From Longimicrobiales bacterium (GTDB lineage Bacteria > Gemmatimonadota > Gemmatimonadetes > Longimicrobiales > Gaopeijiaceae), in contig CBDANQ010000051.1 in the NCBI GenBank assembly GCA_965197725.1, positions 15,150 to 79,149 of the forward strand: a DNA stretch of 64,000 bases, in the 5' to 3' direction. This document shows positions 3,558-58,332 of the stretch, in pieces. The notes beneath the pieces are model-generated. The model made no database searches and was not told the DNA's origin. It saw only the letters and a program-made list of their open reading frames with translations. The translations under genes and the position numbers were made by a program. Numbering within the stretch: position 1 is the first letter of the stretch; the number at the start of each line of letters is the position of its first letter.

Positions 3558-4454
3558 GTTCTCAGCCTCGGATCGAGGGCGTCCCGTAAGCCATCACCCA
3601 CGAGGTTGAAAGAGAGCACCGTGAAGACGATGGCGAGGCCCGGAAACGTCGAGAGCCACCATGCGTCGAGAAGATAGGCACGACCATCAGCAACCATCGT
3701 ACCCCACGAAGGTGTCGGCGGCTGGACACCCAGTCCAAGAAAGGATAGCCCCGCCTCGAGCACGATCGTATTCCCGATCCCGAGCGTGGCGGCAACGCAC
3801 GGGTGTCAACACGTTCGGGATCAGGTGTCGGAGAATGATCCGACGCTTCGGATAGCCCAACGCCTGAGCTGCCTGCACGAACTCTCGCTCCCTCAGGCTC
3901 AACACTTCACCCCGCACGATACGAGCGGTGCTGGGCCACAGCGTAAGGCCGAGTACCGCCACGATCAGAAAAATCGAAGGCTCGAAGATCGCAACGATCG
4001 TGATCAGCAAGACCAGTCGAGGAAACGAGATCACCATGTCTACGAAGCGCATGATGACGCCGTCCACGATCCCGCCCATGAAGCCCGCGATCGCCCCTAG
4101 TAGTGTCCCGATCGTCACGCTGATCCCGACCGCCAAGAATCCGATCGTCAAGGAGATGCGAGCGCCGAAGAGCAGGCGAGAGAAAACGTCGCGGGCGAAC
4201 TGATCGGTTCCCAGCGGATGAGTCGCCGACATGCCCACGAGCCGCATACTGACGAGATCGTACTGGACACCGGGGTCGTGCGGCGCAATAAGCGGGGTCA
4301 TGAGCGCAATCATGTACAGTGCGACAATCAAGATCAGCCCCGCTACCGCGGTCCGGTTCTTCGAGAACGCGCGCACCGCCAAATCCCACTTGGCTGACTC
4401 CCACGACCTTCAACTCCTGCGAGCGTCCCACGTCACGCCACGACCACACCCAAC
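3554..4454 (-). pseudogene. oppC: Duplicated, 5'-truncated and frameshifted copy of oppC
   Basis: Same permease sequence and same frameshifts as 4785-5685; lacks the N-terminal part encoded at 5686-5908. Confidence 0.85.
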
Positions 4455-51447: not shown

Positions 51448-52080
51448 ATGACCGATCGAACCATACGAAACGTCGCCGATCTGGACTCCCTCGATTTCGG
51501 CAGGTCGGATGGCCTAGTATCCGTCGTCGCGCAGGACGCCCACACGGGGGAGGCGCTGATACTGGCGTACGCGAACCGTGACGCTCTGGAGGCGTCACTC
51601 TCATCAGGCGAGATGCACTTCTGGTCTCGCAGCCGTGACGTGCTTTGGAGGAAAGGCGAGACGAGCGGGAATACGTTGCAGGTGTGCTCGCTTCACGCCG
51701 ACTGCGACGAAGACTCCGTGCTCGCGCTCGTCGTGCCGAGGGGACCCGCGTGTCACACCGGCGAGGCCACATGCTTCGGAGCGAGTTCCGCGCCCGAAAA
51801 GAAGGAGGACGCCCTCACCCGCCTAGCCGCCACGATCGAGGCACGCGCTGCCAACCGCCCGGAGGGCAGCTACACGACCCGCCTGCTCGAAGACCGTAAC
51901 CTGCGCCTCAAGAAGCTCGGTGAGGAGAGCGCCGAGCTGATCGCGGCACTCGCCACGAGTAGCGTCGAAGAAGCCGTCGAAGAGGCCGCGGACCTCGTAT
52001 ACCACATGCTGGTCGCACTGAGAGCCGAGGGCGCAACGTTGGCGGACGTGGCCGCGGAGTTAGCGCGCCGAGCGAAGTAG
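51448..52080 (+). CDS. hisIE: Bifunctional PR-AMP cyclohydrolase / PR-ATP pyrophosphohydrolase
   Basis: FWSRSR, WRKGETSG, DCDED, ACHTG, SYT, KKLGEE, ADLVYH. Confidence 0.95.
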   Translation: MTDRTIRNVADLDSLDFGRSDGLVSVVAQDAHTGEALILAYANRDALEASLSSGEMHFWSRSRDVLWRKGETSGNTLQVCSLHADCDEDSVLALVVPRGPACHTGEATCFGASSAPEKKEDALTRLAATIEARAANRPEGSYTTRLLEDRNLRLKKLGEESAELIAALATSSVEEAVEEAADLVYHMLVALRAEGATLADVAAELARRAK

Positions 52081-52082
52081 CG

Positions 52083-52199
52083 CGCCGGAAACCCTCTCCC
52101 GAGCCTCGGGTACGGACCCGGTCCCTCCCCGCTCCCGGCGCTCAGCACCATGGCCCAAGTCCGATCCTCGTGCTGACGCTCGCGTCGGCGACCCAGGTC
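52083..52199 (+). repeat. Degenerate direct copy of the upstream region and 5' end of the ABC gene at 56460-56679
   Basis: 52083-52161 matches 56460-56538 (76/79) and 52162-52199 matches 56642-56679 (35/38); 103 bp are missing in between. Confidence 0.92.
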
Positions 52200-52226
52200 T
52201 GGGGCGACCGGCGCTACCTCGATCTC

Positions 52227-53687
52227 TCACTCCTCCAGGCACAGGAGGTCGCCCAGGCAGCCTAGCAGTCCGTGGAAGAAATAGGTTCCCAGCGGATGAT
52301 GGGTGGGAGAGAAGGCAGACACGCGGGCGGGGGCTGTGTTGTTGTGCAAGAAGCGGGTTTTGGGGTCTGACGAGGCGATATTCGGCCCAAGGAAGGCGAA
52401 ATAGCGCCGAATACGGCGGAAAAAGCGCGAGACGCGGGTTGTAACCTGAGTTGCGAGCGCAGCTTGTACGGTAGCGAGGCCCTGTAACGCACGGGGGGTT
52501 CCAACCCCGAACCGCTTGCGCATGAGAAGGCCGAGGTTGAAGGCCGCCGCGTGGATCAACATCCGTTTTCGAATCTCCTCCTGGCCCCGTATGTGGACGC
52601 GACGCAGCCCTCCGGTCACAAGCAAGTGCGCAAACCCCCGCTCCACCTTCTCGCCGCGCTGGCGCAGCAGCCGCATCCCCCGGTTGCCGCGGATCCGGCG
52701 GCGGTTGTCGTAGGTCGGCTTCTGCGCGTCCCGGTTGTTCTTCCATTTCCGGCGCCCGCGGTTGGGCTCGCTCACATAGCTGCGCAGCTCCCGCTCCTTC
52801 ACGCCCGTCATGGTCTTGTTCGAGTGGTAGCCTTTGTCGGCCACCACTTCCTCGGGCTCTACCTGCACTACTTCCAGCTGCCGCTCTGCCTCGTCCAGCG
52901 TGTTGGGCAGCGACGCCACATCTCCCCCGTCCATCGTCTGCACCGTCACCGCCACAAGCGCACCGGTCTCCATGTCGACCGCCTGCTCCAACTTGTGCGC
53001 CAGGCGCGTCCTGCCGTCCTTCATCTTCGTGATCCGCGCCTCCGGGTCGTGCGGATGCACCCAGTCCTTGTTCGAGCCCTTCTTCGGACGCTTCCGGTCC
53101 AGCGTCGTCAGATCCTTGCGCGTCGGCGTCTCGATCCCCGACGCCCGGGCCACCTGCTGCAGCCATTCATCGTAGCCCAACCCGTCGTCGCGCCGCACGA
53201 TCGTGCGCATCGCCGCATTCGCCTCCAGCGTCGTCGAGTCGACGCCCAGCGTCTTGCCGCTCAGCAACCCCGACCCCTTCAGCAGCTCCAGCACCCGCCC
53301 GAACACCGCCGCGTGCGCTTCCACGCTCAGGCGCTTGCGCGTCTTCGACAGGGTCGAATGCTCCGGCGGGTTCTTCGCCCACCCGTATCCCAGAAACTCA
53401 CGCAACGACAACGAGTCCCCACACCGCCAGGCAATGCCCCGCTCCGAGCCGATCCCTTCCAGGTAGCCCACCATCATCATTCGGAAATACACCCCGGGAG
53501 CAATCCCCGGCCGACCCCGATTGTCCGCGTAGAACTCACGGCATGCCTCTTCCGCGAACTCGTCAAACCCGCTTTTCGCCAGAAGCTCGTTCAAGGCCCA
53601 GTAGAACGGGTTGTCCAAGGCCCGAATCTCGCTCGCCACCACGAACATCTCGCCCTGCCGAGCCTCGGGCCGCTTGCCTACCGCCAT
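52227..53687 (-). CDS. DDE transposase (DUF772 + DDE_Tnp_1 type)
   Basis: GRPGIAP, SLREFLG, HSTLSKTRKR, VDSTTLEANA, VADKGYH, ERGFAH; ATG at 53687 with upstream GAGGA; ORF reads through the IR. Confidence 0.9.
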   Translation of the reverse strand: MAVGKRPEARQGEMFVVASEIRALDNPFYWALNELLAKSGFDEFAEEACREFYADNRGRPGIAPGVYFRMMMVGYLEGIGSERGIAWRCGDSLSLREFLGYGWAKNPPEHSTLSKTRKRLSVEAHAAVFGRVLELLKGSGLLSGKTLGVDSTTLEANAAMRTIVRRDDGLGYDEWLQQVARASGIETPTRKDLTTLDRKRPKKGSNKDWVHPHDPEARITKMKDGRTRLAHKLEQAVDMETGALVAVTVQTMDGGDVASLPNTLDEAERQLEVVQVEPEEVVADKGYHSNKTMTGVKERELRSYVSEPNRGRRKWKNNRDAQKPTYDNRRRIRGNRGMRLLRQRGEKVERGFAHLLVTGGLRRVHIRGQEEIRKRMLIHAAAFNLGLLMRKRFGVGTPRALQGLATVQAALATQVTTRVSRFFRRIRRYFAFLGPNIASSDPKTRFLHNNTAPARVSAFSPTHHPLGTYFFHGLLGCLGDLLCLEE

Positions 53688-53768
53688 CGCCGTCCTCGCT
53701 GCAAAAACCCTCGTGTCCTCCTGATTTAACACAACAGCGATGACCGGACTTTATCCACGGTCTGCTAG
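52262..53768 (-). mobile_element. IS1182/IS5-like insertion sequence with CTAG target duplication
   Basis: CTAG at 52262-52265 and 53765-53768; imperfect terminal IRs CAGTCCGTGGAAGAAA / CAGACCGTGGATAAAG (12/16). Confidence 0.88.
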
Positions 53769-53850
53769 TCGAAGGCAAGGAGCTGCCCTCCGCTTTTACA
53801 CACAGACCGGGACTTGACCATCCCGCTCGGGGCACCCACCGCAGGTGGGT

Positions 53851-53923
53851 CGCTGGGCCGTGCTGCTCGCTCTCATCTACGAGGTGCTGCCGCGCTCTGC
53901 CCCGCTTGTAGTGGCCCATGAGG
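53851..53923 (+). mobile_element. Remnant resembling the C-terminal region of an IS91-like (Y2) transposase
   Basis: RWAVLLALIYEVLP followed by a frameshift-broken LCP-C-G-MR zinc-finger-like stretch. Confidence 0.6.
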
Positions 53924-53947
53924 ACGGTGGTTGACTAGGATTAGGAC

Positions 53948-54820
53948 TCAGTCGCCTCCGGCGAGCTGCGCGTATACGCCCGTCACGAACCGCTCAGGGT
54001 CTCCCCACTTCGCGTTGTACCGGGCGGTCGGGTCGGCGGCCGCGACCTGGTCGTACGAGAGACCCCGCTCGACCATCTCGGCGACCTGCGCCTTCACGTC
54101 CAGGATCATGTCCCGAAACTCGATCACGTCCTGACGCGTCGAAACCATCCCGTGCCCCGGGACGATCTTCGTGTCCGGTCCCGCGAGGCCGATGGCGGTA
54201 GCCAGCGCCTCTATGGTGCCGTCGAGCGTGCCGCCGTTCGCGAGGTCGATGTACGGGAAGCCGGTGGTTCTGAAGACATCCCCAGTGTGGAGCACGTCGG
54301 GGTCCTTGAAGTAGATGTAGCTGTCACCGTCGGTATGGGCCGGAGCCACCGAAAATACGTCAACCTCCTCTCCGTTCAGGTGAATCGTGATCGCGTCGCT
54401 GTACGTGAGGACCGGTAGTGCGTCCTCGGGTGCTGACTCCATCAGGCGGACTCGCACTTCGTCGCGCGCAAGGATCAGGATTCCCATCCTTCCAAGGTTC
54501 TCGTTGCCGCCCGTGTGGTCGCCATGCACGTGCGTGTTGACCACGAACCGGATCTCTCCGTTTGATAACCTGCGGATGGCCGCTAGGATCTTGTCTGTGA
54601 GGCCCGCGAACTGGTCGTCGATCATGACGACGCCGTCCTCGCCGACTGAAAGGCCGATATTCCCACCCGCACCCGCCAGGTAATAGACACTGCCTGCCAC
54701 GTGGTGCGCAGTGACCTCCACGTTGCTGAAGTCTCTCTGGGCGTTCGTGTCGGTCGGCAGTACTAAGAAGCCGACGGCGCCGACGGTGGCTAACTGCCCA
54801 AGGCGATTCGCCCTTTTCAT
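53948..54820 (-). CDS. Exported MBL-fold metallo-hydrolase (cyclase/glyoxylase-like)
   Basis: Signal peptide; GAGGNI, NTHVHGDHTGGN, AHTDGD, HTGD, PGHG. Confidence 0.9.
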   Translation of the reverse strand: MKRANRLGQLATVGAVGFLVLPTDTNAQRDFSNVEVTAHHVAGSVYYLAGAGGNIGLSVGEDGVVMIDDQFAGLTDKILAAIRRLSNGEIRFVVNTHVHGDHTGGNENLGRMGILILARDEVRVRLMESAPEDALPVLTYSDAITIHLNGEEVDVFSVAPAHTDGDSYIYFKDPDVLHTGDVFRTTGFPYIDLANGGTLDGTIEALATAIGLAGPDTKIVPGHGMVSTRQDVIEFRDMILDVKAQVAEMVERGLSYDQVAAADPTARYNAKWGDPERFVTGVYAQLAGGD

Positions 54821-54862
54821 TGGGAGTCTCCTTCGATCGGTGGGAGGGGACAAGGAACGTAG

Positions 54863-55007
54863 TGTTGTGCTTCAGGACGTTTCGGACAAGCGGGGCTTGG
54901 TTCGAAGTGAGACACGGCCTGGGTATCAGCCGGCCTCCTGAAATCGCTTTCCATGCAGGCGACGCGTGTTGTAGAACTCGATCCACCCGGCCGATGATCT
55001 GGCGGGC
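54863..55007 (-). mobile_element. 3' remnant of an IS3-family element
   Basis: ARQIIG(R)/WIEFYNTRRLH integrase-core C-terminal motif, followed by a possible right end finishing in CA at 54863. Confidence 0.6.
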
Positions 55008-55250
55008 ATTCGTGGGTCGGGCGCAGCGGTCGCCGCGCGCTACTGGGGCCTGTCCGTCGCGGACTACATGGAGCAGTCAGACATCTGGCGGTTGGACCCC
55101 AAGGGGAACCTGGTCCCCTGGTTCATCATCGAGAACCGGCTCGGCGTGGCCAACGTGCGCGAGATCGCGCGCGAGCTCAGTGCAAAGAACATCGGCGCCG
55201 TCTTGTGGGCCGGGAGCGGCGACCTGGGCGCCTCCTACAACAACGGCCAG
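55005..55250 (+). pseudogene. Internal fragment of an HpcH/HpaI aldolase-family gene
   Basis: GIRGSGAAVAARYWGLSVADYMEQSDIW.LDP.G...IIENRLGVANVREIA...AGSGDL; no start and no C-terminus. Confidence 0.68.
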
Positions 55251-55276
55251 GCGGGAGGCTGGGCGCTAGTTGCCGC

Positions 55277-55360
55277 GGGAGACCCCCCGGCTTTGCCGGG
55301 GCGGCCAGCAGAGCTTGACGTTTCCGGGAGTCACGTGAGGAACTCCTTCCCGTGAGCTGC
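55277..55360 (+). mobile_element. Left-end remnant of an IS200/IS605-type element
   Basis: Hairpin CCCCGGC-TTT-GCCGGGG (55285-55301), then GAGCTTGACGTTTCCGGGAGT...GAACTCC...GTGAGC, resembling tnpA leader regions from memory. Confidence 0.58.
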
Positions 55361-55419
55361 TCGCCGATCTCCTACGCACCAATCTCCTTCCTTCGGGCTG
55401 GGTGCCCGACCCCGAGACC
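55360..55419 (+). mobile_element. Fragment resembling an IS110-family transposase
   Basis: LADLLRTNLLPSGWVPDPET resembles the LAxLLRxxxLPxxWxP block after the KTD motif. Confidence 0.55.
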
Positions 55420-55460
55420 TGGACCACAACGCCAACTTCATGAGCGCCGCGCCGGTCCGA

Positions 55461-56105
55461 TTAACGCTCCGCCGGCCACCCCGTGTCGAGCGGAATCGTC
55501 GGGTCCGCCGTAATCTGCAGATCCGCGCAATGGTGATACGAGTATCCACCCGGATTGTTAAAAGCGTGCTCGGCCATGAACTGCACTACTTGCAGGACGC
55601 ACTTCTCGCAGCTGATGTTCGGGAGCCGTACATCCGCCTCAAAGACTTGCATCCGATCGGCCGGCCGCGTGGAATGGACGAACAGGCCGTCAGCGAGCAC
55701 GGGAATCTGCGGCGGGTCCTGAATGACAGCCGACACAGACCATGGCCCCCTGTCGCTATCCCTCGTAGTGACTTCCGGATCAGGCGGCAACTCGGTGGGC
55801 GAGTTCACCGCCAACGCTACCCGGTAGTGCCCCGGGTGGTAAATGGTCTCCTGAATCCTGAGATGCAGCATCTCCCCGCCTACGGCCTGGTTGATGACGT
55901 AGCTCGCTTCGCCCCAATCGCTATTGGAACCCCCGCAGGGTCCTGCTTTCTGCGGGTCCCCGCGGTCGCTTTCGATGAGCCAAGAGGTGGGTTCCAAAAG
56001 CTTGAAGTGGGGTGCGGCACTCGGAAGCTCGAAGCGGGCGGAGGCAGCCGGCGCGGCTATCGCTAGCGCGGCGACCAGTAAAGGAAACCCAATAGAGGAT
56101 CTCAT
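55461..56105 (-). CDS. SCE4755-like polysaccharide monooxygenase-like (His-brace) exported protein
   Basis: Signal peptide; HFKLLEP, QKAGPCGG, ETIYHPGHYRVAL, LPNISCEKCVLQVVQFM, YHHCADL. Confidence 0.8.
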   Translation of the reverse strand: MRSSIGFPLLVAALAIAAPAASARFELPSAAPHFKLLEPTSWLIESDRGDPQKAGPCGGSNSDWGEASYVINQAVGGEMLHLRIQETIYHPGHYRVALAVNSPTELPPDPEVTTRDSDRGPWSVSAVIQDPPQIPVLADGLFVHSTRPADRMQVFEADVRLPNISCEKCVLQVVQFMAEHAFNNPGGYSYHHCADLQITADPTIPLDTGWPAER

Positions 56106-56194
56106 CGAAATACTCCTTCGAAGGTGAAAGAGCCGCGGCGCGACGGCTCGCGTAACCCTATCGCTCCGCCGGCAATGGTTCAAGAGCCGCCGAC

Positions 56195-56299
56195 TTCCGA
56201 CGCCACGGCCTGCTCGACGAAGCCGACGCCCACGGCATGCTCTCCTGGCAAGGCGCCGGTGGGTTCAGCATCGACGCGTCCATCCGCATCCAGGGCAAG
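56195..56299 (+). mobile_element. Internal fragment resembling an IS91-like (Y2) transposase
   Basis: FRRHGLLDEADAHGMLSWQGAGGFSIDASIRIQG; GFSxDAxVRI normally precedes the LxRYxxRP motif. Confidence 0.65.
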
Positions 56300-56526
56300 G
56301 CCGCGCCCGTCGACTGGCAAGCGGGCCCGCTAACGCGAAGGCGCATCTGATCCGGTAGGGTTAGAACCCCCCGGCCAGAACCGACGGGTGGATCAGATGG
56401 AGGAGGCGGTAGGCTAGTCCGTCAGGGCGTCATCAGTTCTGGCTTCCACCCCGCCACCCCGCCGGAAACCCCCTCCTGAGCCTCGGGTACGGACCCAGTC
56501 CCTCCCCGCTCCCGGCGCTCAGCACC

Positions 56527-58332
56527 ATGGCCCAAGTCGACGCATTCCACGAAGAAGAGGCTCTGGGGAAGGCCTACGACGCGCGCCTTATGAGGCGCCT
56601 GGTCCGGTACCTCTCGCCGTACCGATGGCAGGTGGCGCTGGCGATCCTCGTGCTGATGCTCGCCTCGGCCACCCAGGTCGTCGGGCCTTGGCTCACGCAG
56701 CTCATTATCGATGAGGCGATTCCCCGAGGGGACAAGGAGTATCTCGCGCTCCTGGCGGTGGGCTTTATGGCGGCGATCCTGCTCGGGGTCGTGCTGCAAT
56801 ACGCGCAAGCGATCATCACGACCTGGCTCGGTCAGTCGGTGATGTACGACCTACGCGCCGAGATTTTCGAGAAGCTGCAGCGCATCGATCTGCGCTACCA
56901 CGACAAGAATCCGGTCGGCCGTCTCATGACTCGCATGACGAACGATGTTGAGACGCTCAACACCCTGTTCAGCTCGGGCCTGGTCACGGTATTCGGCGAC
57001 ATCTTCATGCTCACGTTCATCGTGATCGCGATGCTGAGGATGAATTGGCAGCTCGCGCTGGTGTCGTTCAGCGTGCTACCCCTCGTCTTCTTCGCGGCCT
57101 TTCTCTTTCGAGCCAAAATACGCCGGGCGTACCGGGACATCCGCGTGCGCATCGCGCGCATGAACGCGTTTCTGCACGAGCGCCTCACCGGCGTGAGGGT
57201 CGTGCAGCTCTTCAACCGTGAAGAGGCCGACGCGGCCAAGCACGCCACGTTGAACCGCGAGTACCTCGACGCACATCTCCGGTCCATCACCTACTATGCG
57301 CTCTTCTTCCCGGTCATCCAGTTCTTCACCGCGCTGGCGCTCGCGTCGATCATCTGGTATGGCGGCCTACGTACATTCGACGGCGTGCTGACGGTCGGTG
57401 TCGTAACCGCGTTCCTCCAGTACGCGCGCAGCTTCTTCCGCCCCATCCAGGACCTCTCCGAGAAGTACAATCTGCTTCAGGGCGCGATGGCTTCCTCGGA
57501 GCGTGTCTTTCAACTGCTGGACGAGAAGATCGTGATCGCGGACCCCTCCCGACCGATCGCGCTTCCCTCAGAGACGGCCGGCCGCATCGAGTTCCGGGAC
57601 GTGTGGTTCGCGTACGTGAACGACTCAGAGGGTCAACCGGACTGGGTGCTCAAGGGCGTGAGCTTCACGGTCGAGCCCGGAGAAAAGATCGCCATCGTCG
57701 GCCACACGGGCGCCGGCAAGACGACGATCATCAATCTGTTGATGCGTTTCTACCAAGTGAACCGGGGTCAGATCCTGCTGGACGACACACCGATCGACGC
57801 AACGCGGCTCGACGATCTGAGGAAGCGCATCGCTTTGGTGTTGCAGGACGTCTTCCTGTTCAGCCAGGACGTTGCATACAATATTCGGCTCGGTTCGCCG
57901 CACATCGACGACGCACGCATCCGCGCTGCCGCTGAACGCATCGGGGCAGCACCCTTCATCGCTCGGCTCGAGGACGGTTACGACCAGGCTCTGGGAGAGC
58001 GGGGCACGTCGCTCTCGGTGGGCGAGCGGCAGCTCGTCAGCTTCGCGCGGGCGCTTGCATTCGACCCGGAGATCCTGGTGCTCGACGAGGCGACCAGCTC
58101 GGTGGACTCGGAGATCGAGGCTCAGATCGAAGCCGCCACGGACGAGCTCCTGCGGGGCCGCACGTCGCTCGTGATCGCGCACCGACTCTCCACGGTGCAG
58201 AACGCCGACCGACTCATCGTGCTCCATCAAGGAGAGCTACGCGAAGAGGGCACGCACGAAGAACTGCTCGAGGCCGACGGCTTGTACGCGCGCCTGCACG
58301 AATTGCAGTTTGCGGCCGCTATAGGCGCATAG
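56527..58332 (+). CDS. ABC exporter, fused TMD + NBD (MsbA/MdlB-like)
   Basis: Six TM segments; GHTGAGKT, LSVGERQ, LVLDEATSSVD, IAHRLST. Confidence 0.94.
   Translation: MAQVDAFHEEEALGKAYDARLMRRLVRYLSPYRWQVALAILVLMLASATQVVGPWLTQLIIDEAIPRGDKEYLALLAVGFMAAILLGVVLQYAQAIITTWLGQSVMYDLRAEIFEKLQRIDLRYHDKNPVGRLMTRMTNDVETLNTLFSSGLVTVFGDIFMLTFIVIAMLRMNWQLALVSFSVLPLVFFAAFLFRAKIRRAYRDIRVRIARMNAFLHERLTGVRVVQLFNREEADAAKHATLNREYLDAHLRSITYYALFFPVIQFFTALALASIIWYGGLRTFDGVLTVGVVTAFLQYARSFFRPIQDLSEKYNLLQGAMASSERVFQLLDEKIVIADPSRPIALPSETAGRIEFRDVWFAYVNDSEGQPDWVLKGVSFTVEPGEKIAIVGHTGAGKTTIINLLMRFYQVNRGQILLDDTPIDATRLDDLRKRIALVLQDVFLFSQDVAYNIRLGSPHIDDARIRAAAERIGAAPFIARLEDGYDQALGERGTSLSVGERQLVSFARALAFDPEILVLDEATSSVDSEIEAQIEAATDELLRGRTSLVIAHRLSTVQNADRLIVLHQGELREEGTHEELLEADGLYARLHELQFAAAIGA

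Follow-up and report, generated by a model that had tools for sequence, protein, structure and literature searches.

The window analysed here comprises 64,000 nucleotides (nt) of contig CBDANQ010000051.1 (GenBank assembly GCA_965197725.1) from a Longimicrobiales bacterium, whose genome we refer to as G000; the other G-numbers denote genomes of relatives. Our subject is the interval that runs from the stop codon of hisIE (position 52080) to the start of an ATP-binding cassette (ABC) exporter gene (56527). It contains one intact insertion sequence (IS), two intact cargo genes, encoding a metallo-beta-lactamase (MBL)-fold hydrolase and a protein resembling lytic polysaccharide monooxygenases (LPMO), and a series of fragments (Table 1).

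Contents of the hisIE-ABC interval

Pfam detected none of the six IS stubs, and a scan of 22 short reading frames returned a weak HpcH hit together with one spurious hit. Searches against close relatives were therefore needed, and each stub was compared with related genomes and plasmids. By this route, all six stubs and the HpcH piece matched the families assigned to them in a preliminary description of the window, which had been made from the sequence alone and had pictured a mosaic of five IS families. The locus is an example of debris that standard profiles miss. The same description had considered the IS1182-like element, the hydrolase gene and the LPMO-like gene to be near-intact, and all three are in fact intact.

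Table 1. Features of the hisIE-ABC interval and its flanks, in window coordinates
Feature	Coordinates	Strand	Evidence
hisIE, left core flank	51448-52080	+	NF002747 over cut-off; 91% amino acid identity to G002
Disrupted copy of the ABC leader plus codons 1-51; left direct repeat	52083-52199	+	copies 56460-56538 and 56642-56679
IS256 transposase 3' end	52191-52265	+	91% (76 nt) to full IS256 copies of G055, G077, G140
Intact IS1182-like element, 1499 nt	52266-53764	-	terminal inverted repeats; 4-nt CTAG target duplication
IS256 right end, exact terminus	53769-53819	+	continues the 52191-52265 piece to the right end of the element
IS91/ISCR-like stub near the C-terminus	53822-53924	+	91% to G001 and G157 copies; parents with Y2_Tnp
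22-nt hairpin micro-insertion (7-bp stem, GNA loop)	53830-53851	+	inside the IS91 stub; absent from the G002 copy
MBL-fold hydrolase, 290 amino acids, intact	53948-54820	-	PF00753; 78% amino acid identity to the G011 homologue
IS3-family 3' end, terminal repeat and internal deletion	54863-55007	-	two-piece match to a G028 IS3-family element
HpcH/HpaI aldolase-family gene, internal fragment	55005-55256	+	63% amino acid identity over 84 residues to a PF03328 protein
IS200/IS605 left end, subterminal hairpin	55266-55358 (match from ~55270)	+	Rhizobium and ISMex34 DNA upstream of tnpA
IS110 transposase stub, end of DEDD domain	55359-55426	+	76% to a full IS110 gene
SCE4755-family polysaccharide monooxygenase-like (LPMO-like) gene, 214 amino acids, intact	55461-56105	-	NF043005 over cut-off; Atlas score 0.98
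IS91/ISCR-like stub, mid-gene	56193-56313	+	85-90% nt identity; 93% amino acid identity over 29 residues
Unassigned 146 nt with 10-bp inverted repeat	56314-56459		weak short hits in 200 genomes of the order and in plasmids
Leader (from 56460) and intact ABC exporter gene (56527-58332), right core flank	56460-58332	+	PF00664, PF00005; 96% to G002

Parents of the IS256, IS3 and IS110 stubs passed the models NF033543 (314.6 against a cut-off of 150), NF033516 (183.1 against 160) and NF033542 (266.2 against 140), respectively. For three IS256 copies found in other genomes, the alignment ends at the very base that forms the right terminus of IS256 in the window, and the IS3 stub starts at a terminal TG common to two other sites of G000; plasmid searches with the IS3 stub, at the DNA and protein level, gave chance hits only. 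The two IS91 stubs align to genes with Y2_Tnp and Zn_Tnp_IS91 domains, and the one parent tested scored below the NCBIfam cut-offs for both IS91 (108.5 against 125) and ISCR (280.7 against 925). At the IS200/IS605 left end, the tetranucleotide CTAR precedes the match in five of five aligned copies and no tnpA follows it here. Of three annotated parent regions, two carry an annotated tnpA at this place and the third has a tnpA-like start within the alignment. Our survey of effector genes covered five genomes of the genus (G000, 89% complete; three of the relatives, 97-99% complete) and found tnpA (Y1 transposase) in none of them, with positive controls detected. Homologues of the left end (window 55133-55339) reach a summed depth of about 1600-1900 in metagenome runs X1 and X3. 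Among the families, IS110 is the weakest call (68 nt, E ~1e-6); the stub aligns to full IS110 genes in two of 150 genomes of the bacterial family, and G002 carries a more decayed IS110 stub behind the same LPMO-like cargo gene.

The intact element sits at the stop codon of IS256 and encodes DUF772 and DDE domains. Its best family hit, NF033551, reaches 185.9 bits against a cut-off of 270, and we therefore keep the label "IS1182-like". G000 contains 31 full copies at about 99.5% identity, 23 of them with a perfect CTAG duplication, and the copy in the window is a young insertion from a recent burst. Repeats make up 8.4% of G000, which has 44 IS256 and 51 integrase-core matches, and a comparable burst is seen in G002 with 104 integrase-core matches. 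G000 also carries near-identical duplications that are not IS elements (C51, 19059-20789 and 30238-32764; C58, 100780-103042 and 129667-134416; C60, 38281-39852), some of them in tandem and with a shared leader of 126 nt. The motif CTAG occurs seven times in the 4.46 kb of the insert (52262, 53765, 53935, 54583, 55266, 56063 and 56414), where about 3.8 occurrences are expected and where the genome-wide rate is 0.85 per kb; three of the seven lie at IS junctions, and the excess is non-significant when the target duplication is counted once.

A feature that the preliminary description overlooked is the copy of the ABC leader and start at the left edge. This duplicate has two parts, one of 79 nt (96% identity) and one of 38 nt (92%), with 103 nt deleted between them, and together with the right-hand ABC gene, which is intact, it forms a direct repeat that borders the insert on both sides. 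It ends at a deletion junction and may once have been longer. At this position G002 retains 46 nt of it, bordering 17.8 kb of inserted catabolic genes, and the duplicate is absent in G001. With the 117-nt copy included, 1013 of the 1353 non-gene bases (75%) can be assigned. The earlier claim that nearly all non-gene sequence resolves into fragments is upheld to this extent and fails for the stretch at 56314-56459, which has a fold z of -0.3 and no attC hit, and for which a plasmid search (with 56296-56462) returned chance-level hits only.

Both cargo genes have open reading frames. The MBL-fold hydrolase has an intact metal motif, and its closest solved structure is a hydrolytic dehalogenase; it scores far below the cut-off of all beta-lactamase models and is without a resistance-family assignment. 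The LPMO-like gene recurs at another locus of G002 with 90% identity and with a decayed IS110 stub attached. Contigs of run X3 place both cargo genes in other contexts, departing from the window at 53922, 54862 and 56194, and an X1 contig joins it at 55266. Given the pairing of LPMO-like gene and IS110 stub in G002 and the contexts in X3, the cargo travelled as modules, with at least one scar along.

The junctions themselves are also present in metagenome contigs. Contigs of metagenome run X1, possibly from the source sample, span most of them with zero or few differences, and a seawater run from a different study spans two of them, IS256/IS91 and IS91/MBL, at about 94% identity. Since contigs from both runs bridge its junctions, the insert is not an assembly chimera. 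Contigs of RNA run X23 contain the listed pieces at about 4-13% divergence from the window and thus represent other strains, which makes depth and gaps in X23 uninformative on transcription here.

Variation at the site and a proposed history

Forty relatives were searched for the interval, and the 14 with listed matches to both flanks on one contig were fetched; the relatives span genus to order, with one genome per species. The unpublished genome G025 underlies none of our claims. The interval is empty in four of the 14 (G006, G007, G016 and G028) and filled in ten, with at least seven kinds of content. Four of the filled sites belong to one family with a common block, and the other six differ from each other. 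None of the inserts in the 14 relatives shares cargo with the insert of the window. The 3-kb insert of G001 holds PadR genes, a methylase fragment, a RelB gene and an integrase-core stub, and transposase stubs are found at this site both there and in G002, where the stub is IS91. As in an insertion hotspot, the flanks are conserved, the content is variable, and some relatives have nothing between the flanks. A comparison for polarised turnover found a PadR module that G001 and G002 have in common, at one end of the insert in G001 and at the other end in G002, and this is one module only. Genes for PadR-like regulators recur at the site in G001 (two), G002 and G004 (L023:785-1215; L024:1484-1921 and 3670-4162; L176). 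None of the 20 PF00589 matches of G000 lies within the insert, and no integrase was found among the scanned insert genes of G001 and G002.

Transposition yields exact ends, and deletion yields ragged joins with short overlaps. Within the insert, exact outer ends were found on both sides of the IS1182-like element (with its CTAG duplication), at the right end of IS256 and at the end of IS3, and the IS200/IS605 end could be located within about 10 nt. The ABC copy and the IS256 piece overlap partially by 9 nt, overlaps of 2-3 nt mark the IS3/HpcH, left end/IS110 and LPMO/IS91 joins, one join carries an extra base, and the ABC copy and the IS3 stub have internal deletions. We infer that the exact outer ends were produced by transposition and the ragged inner edges by deletion. 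From the nesting follows an order of events, in which an IS91 gene was hit by IS256, and IS256 in turn by the IS1182-like element.

The short overlaps at several joins and the extra base would also be expected if loose fragments had been captured at a break through end joining by Ku and LigD, rather than carved from whole elements, and Ku is indeed encoded in three of the five genomes surveyed, including G000. However, random capture would not repeatedly preserve exact IS termini, and the boundaries of the cargo match natural contexts in other samples, which renders this origin very unlikely.

Taken together, we consider it likely that the interval is a gene-transfer hotspot free of integrase, where entry of DNA duplicated the ABC start and where nested insertions were followed by erosion through deletions that spared two genes. 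The preliminary description had favoured a hotspot eroded by deletion with two cargo genes spared, and the variability of the site, the exact IS ends, the ragged inner edges and the open frames all support it. In the history that we propose, foreign DNA would have entered in a way that duplicated the ABC leader and start, with the intact gene left on the right; the duplication is seen directly, and the route may have been homologous, site-specific or IS-driven recombination. IS elements would then have landed in the patch and in each other, because the patch was dispensable. Three such putative landings can be placed to the base (the IS1182-like element in the IS256 end, IS256 in the IS91 gene, and IS3 upstream of the hydrolase gene), and a fourth, of IS200/IS605 beside the aldolase gene, is probable. 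Repeated deletions between short homologies, as suggested by the overlaps, would have stripped unselected DNA and left ends and slivers behind. Some of the scars may have come with the cargo instead of arising at the hisIE-ABC site, and the stubs would be without function.

Several published systems resemble the locus. Hotspots between core genes have been described within species, with under half of them encoding an integrase and 56% holding IS elements (Oliveira et al., 2017, PMC5635113). The hisIE-ABC site is alike in being a variable interval between core genes with high turnover, IS elements and neither integrase nor tRNA; it differs in that the variation here extends from genus to order, and that the duplicated 5' end of the ABC gene points to additive entry and not to a clean swap across two flanks. 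For such additive transfer, recombination in the flanking regions is a frequent route, according to PMC11375855. Degenerate IS copies are described as the hallmark of deletion bias (Iranzo et al., 2014, PMC4072520). As in that account, fragments of several IS families lie beside near-identical young bursts, whereas the account is genome-wide and here six stubs of five families lie within 4.4 kb. The locus fits the pictures drawn in all three papers.

Additional parallels come from mobile elements in general. Some integrative islands interrupt a gene but bring along a copy of the end that they displace, so that the gene becomes whole again. The hisIE-ABC insert is similar in that a direct repeat of a gene end is found at both borders, with one copy damaged by deletion and the target gene intact; it differs in having the leader and start of a protein gene as the target, in that no integrase was found, and in that G001 has no repeat. 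ISCR/IS91 composite or rolling-circle transposons likewise have IS91-type sequence on the same strand on both sides of cargo, although only about 100-120 nt of coding sequence is left on each side here, and neither oriIS nor terIS was identified.

In a more specific version of this history, the insert arrived as one circle, either a rolling-circle product of IS91/ISCR or a small integrative element, which carried the cargo plus part of the ABC 5' end, recombined with the chromosome through that part, and was then eroded. A circle would account for the direct repeat, and also for the positions of the IS91 stubs if a single permuted gene had left its two halves in reversed order: the C-terminal stub lies to the left of the middle stub on the same strand, and G157, G001:C61 and G000:C40 each hold a single parent that aligns with both. 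It would also accommodate the duplicate at the insert borders, its shorter version around the G002 insert, and the IS91 stub at the G002 site. However, two IS91 copies explain the stub order equally well, IS91 stubs being common in G000; the inserts of G000, G001 and G002 lack an integrase; and the duplicate ends at a deletion junction and has no counterpart in G001. We regard arrival as a single circle as unlikely and retain an entry that duplicated the ABC start, followed by nested insertion and deletion, as our explanation.

The cargo genes could also be cassettes of a decayed integron, in which attC sites persist without the integrase. G000 does encode an intact integron integrase and has attC sites in two tRNA islands, and the inverted repeat in 56314-56459 has a loosely attC-like spacing. 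Our local attC model, a narrow one built from 13 related sites, finds no hit under E 0.1 in the insert studied here or in those of G001 and G002, and a cassette origin is scarcely conceivable on this evidence. The integron integrase of G000 adjoins a tRNA-Lys island with two attC sites (G000:C32:49714-61956; L171, L382), and one further site belongs to a tRNA-Thr island (C21:39321-47344, L173), both tRNA names having been read by eye.

Stub density and the question of a transposon memory

To place the stub cluster within its genome, IS-like hits in G000 were counted with a library of 225 transposase stretches, which were mostly not fetched through the window. A 66-nt artefact of one chimeric library entry, which accounted for 39 of 100 short hits, was dropped before counting. 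Locus L341, which had been fetched via the hairpin described below, stayed in this 'not targeted' library, and the hits in the window are independent of it. The counts were 155 long and 61 short IS-like hits, 18 of the short ones being IS91. Twelve stretches of G000 contained at least two stubs, and the window contained three stubs of two families. A protein-level scan of the genome recovered one of the six stubs and is too insensitive for density. As controls we used three tRNA-anchored islands of G000 that were chosen for having direct repeats too; here, abutting pieces number ten over 49% of 2650 nt, four over 45% of 2111 nt, and four over 57% of 1336 nt. The decay is thus also visible at classical insertion sites of G000: small tRNA-anchored islands at C19:458-3108, C61:189498-192361 and C53:38384-44716 combine cargo with slivers of kinase genes and with stubs of IS elements or integrases.

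Several of these results weigh against reading the locus as an ordinary eroded hotspot. The window tied for first place with one other stretch when the library was mostly free of parents fetched through it, and ranked first when such parents were included; no second 4.5-kb stretch with five IS families was found in G000; the pieces in the control islands are mainly kinase fragments, IS3-adjacent DNA and attC sites; and the search effort was unequal, with one search per control island and many for the window. Five of the six stubs lie on one strand, antisense to that of the cargo genes (two-sided binomial p ~0.22). Similarly, purifying selection on the spared genes is modest where it could be estimated, with a ratio of nonsynonymous to synonymous substitution rates (dN/dS) of 0.41 for the LPMO-like gene in a single comparison, with G002, next to 0.16 and 0.21 for the flanking genes; this estimate covers the LPMO-like gene alone. 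A fair statement is that the stub density of the window lies at the top of the ordinary range, under unequal search effort. The preliminary description had held that a similar fragment density elsewhere, together with an absence of transcription, would reduce the locus to ordinary decay; as to density, other islands are patchworks too, and a second stretch with five families was not found in these searches.

That description had also raised a more speculative possibility, namely a trap or memory locus that retains IS snippets and putatively turns them into antisense or guide RNAs, loosely in the manner of a cluster of Piwi-interacting RNAs (piRNAs); the targets would be incoming elements. High stub density and the antisense orientation of five of the six stubs would suit such a function, and so would the outcome of the search for parent elements, since no close copies of the parents of the IS256, IS3, IS110 and IS200 stubs were found in G000, as immunity would predict too. 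On the other hand, the IS256, IS3 and IS110 families as such are abundant in G000. There are no repeats between the pieces, only the terminal duplicate, and piece sizes range from 51 to 252 nt. Seven of the eight stub segments find exact matches of at most 13-16 nt in the rest of G000, as long as those in reversed controls, and the eighth has a 33-nt match that lies in a further dead IS91 remnant. Piwi, Cas1 and TnpB were detected in none of the five genomes of the genus, in which positive controls were detected and where PF02171 could miss divergent short Argonautes; Rfam gave no match, and promoter-like sites occur at chance level. Moreover, the contents are not common to loci of the same genus, and the pieces include debris unrelated to IS elements (HpcH and ABC).

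The memory reading accordingly lacks a repeat-spacer layout, a genomic target for seven of eight segments, and any Piwi, Cas1, TnpB or Rfam match, and we judge it highly improbable. Much the same applies to a variant in which the interval is a selected landing pad whose retained IS ends and slivers would be transcribed, antisense to the cargo genes, and would confer resistance to IS lineages of the community independently of Argonaute or Cas proteins; the close parents of four stubs would then be missing from the IS-rich G000 because of this resistance, and we give the idea hardly any credence. piRNA clusters and CRISPR arrays are alike in gathering many short pieces of mobile elements, while the locus differs in having no repeats, no effector or acquisition gene that was detected, and no match to a resident active element. 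IS110 transposases use RNA guides of their own; they are present in G000, and nothing links them to the locus. Our literature search, which was thin on subscription papers, found no description of a bacterial piRNA-like trap. The locus is best read as ordinary turnover of the genome and shows no sign of serving as a memory of transposons. As a case of ordinary decay, it is a fully dissected example of cargo that reached an uncultured lineage bearing old IS scars, and it would be of great importance only if the stubs truly were RNA guides.

A 22-nt hairpin in an IS91 stub

The better lead is the 22-nt hairpin in the left IS91 stub, a tiny element that is near-identical across phyla and has no known mobilising enzyme. 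It replaces 5 nt of the stub and has no target duplication. A species-level collection of genomes from many phyla yields at least 118 stretches with its exact pattern, in records labelled Gemmatimonadota, NC10, Eisenbacteria, Spirochaetia, Chloroflexia and others. In G000, all three copies (including G000:C40:47403 and 47733) lie in or beside IS91 remnants, with one occurrence in a reversed-genome control, and the same is true of all three copies of a sister motif, with none in the control.

Known repetitive extragenic palindromes (REPs) offer the closest comparison. Neither a GTAG nor a CGTC tag was found beside the stem in the flanks of the hairpin, and its end tag has no match in the main text of PMC3733652, whose supplementary lists could hold the family. 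In line with the intragenic REPs of that text, the hairpin is a short palindrome that lies both between and inside genes, DNA polymerase III alpha genes included; it differs in the missing tag, in its near-identity across phyla and in its recurring positions in IS91 genes. By analogy, it behaves like an intragenic REP. A literature search, again thin on subscription papers, found no description of hairpin insertions in IS91 genes.

We also considered that the hairpin might be specific to IS91 across phyla and rejected this, as only 13 of 82 matches (80 loci listed, L254-L333) fall in IS91-type genes. Twelve of the 13 are on the coding strand, and by eye the hairpin recurs at five positions of these genes. 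The other matches are intergenic, self-nested, or placed in frame within ordinary genes, that for DNA polymerase III alpha among them.

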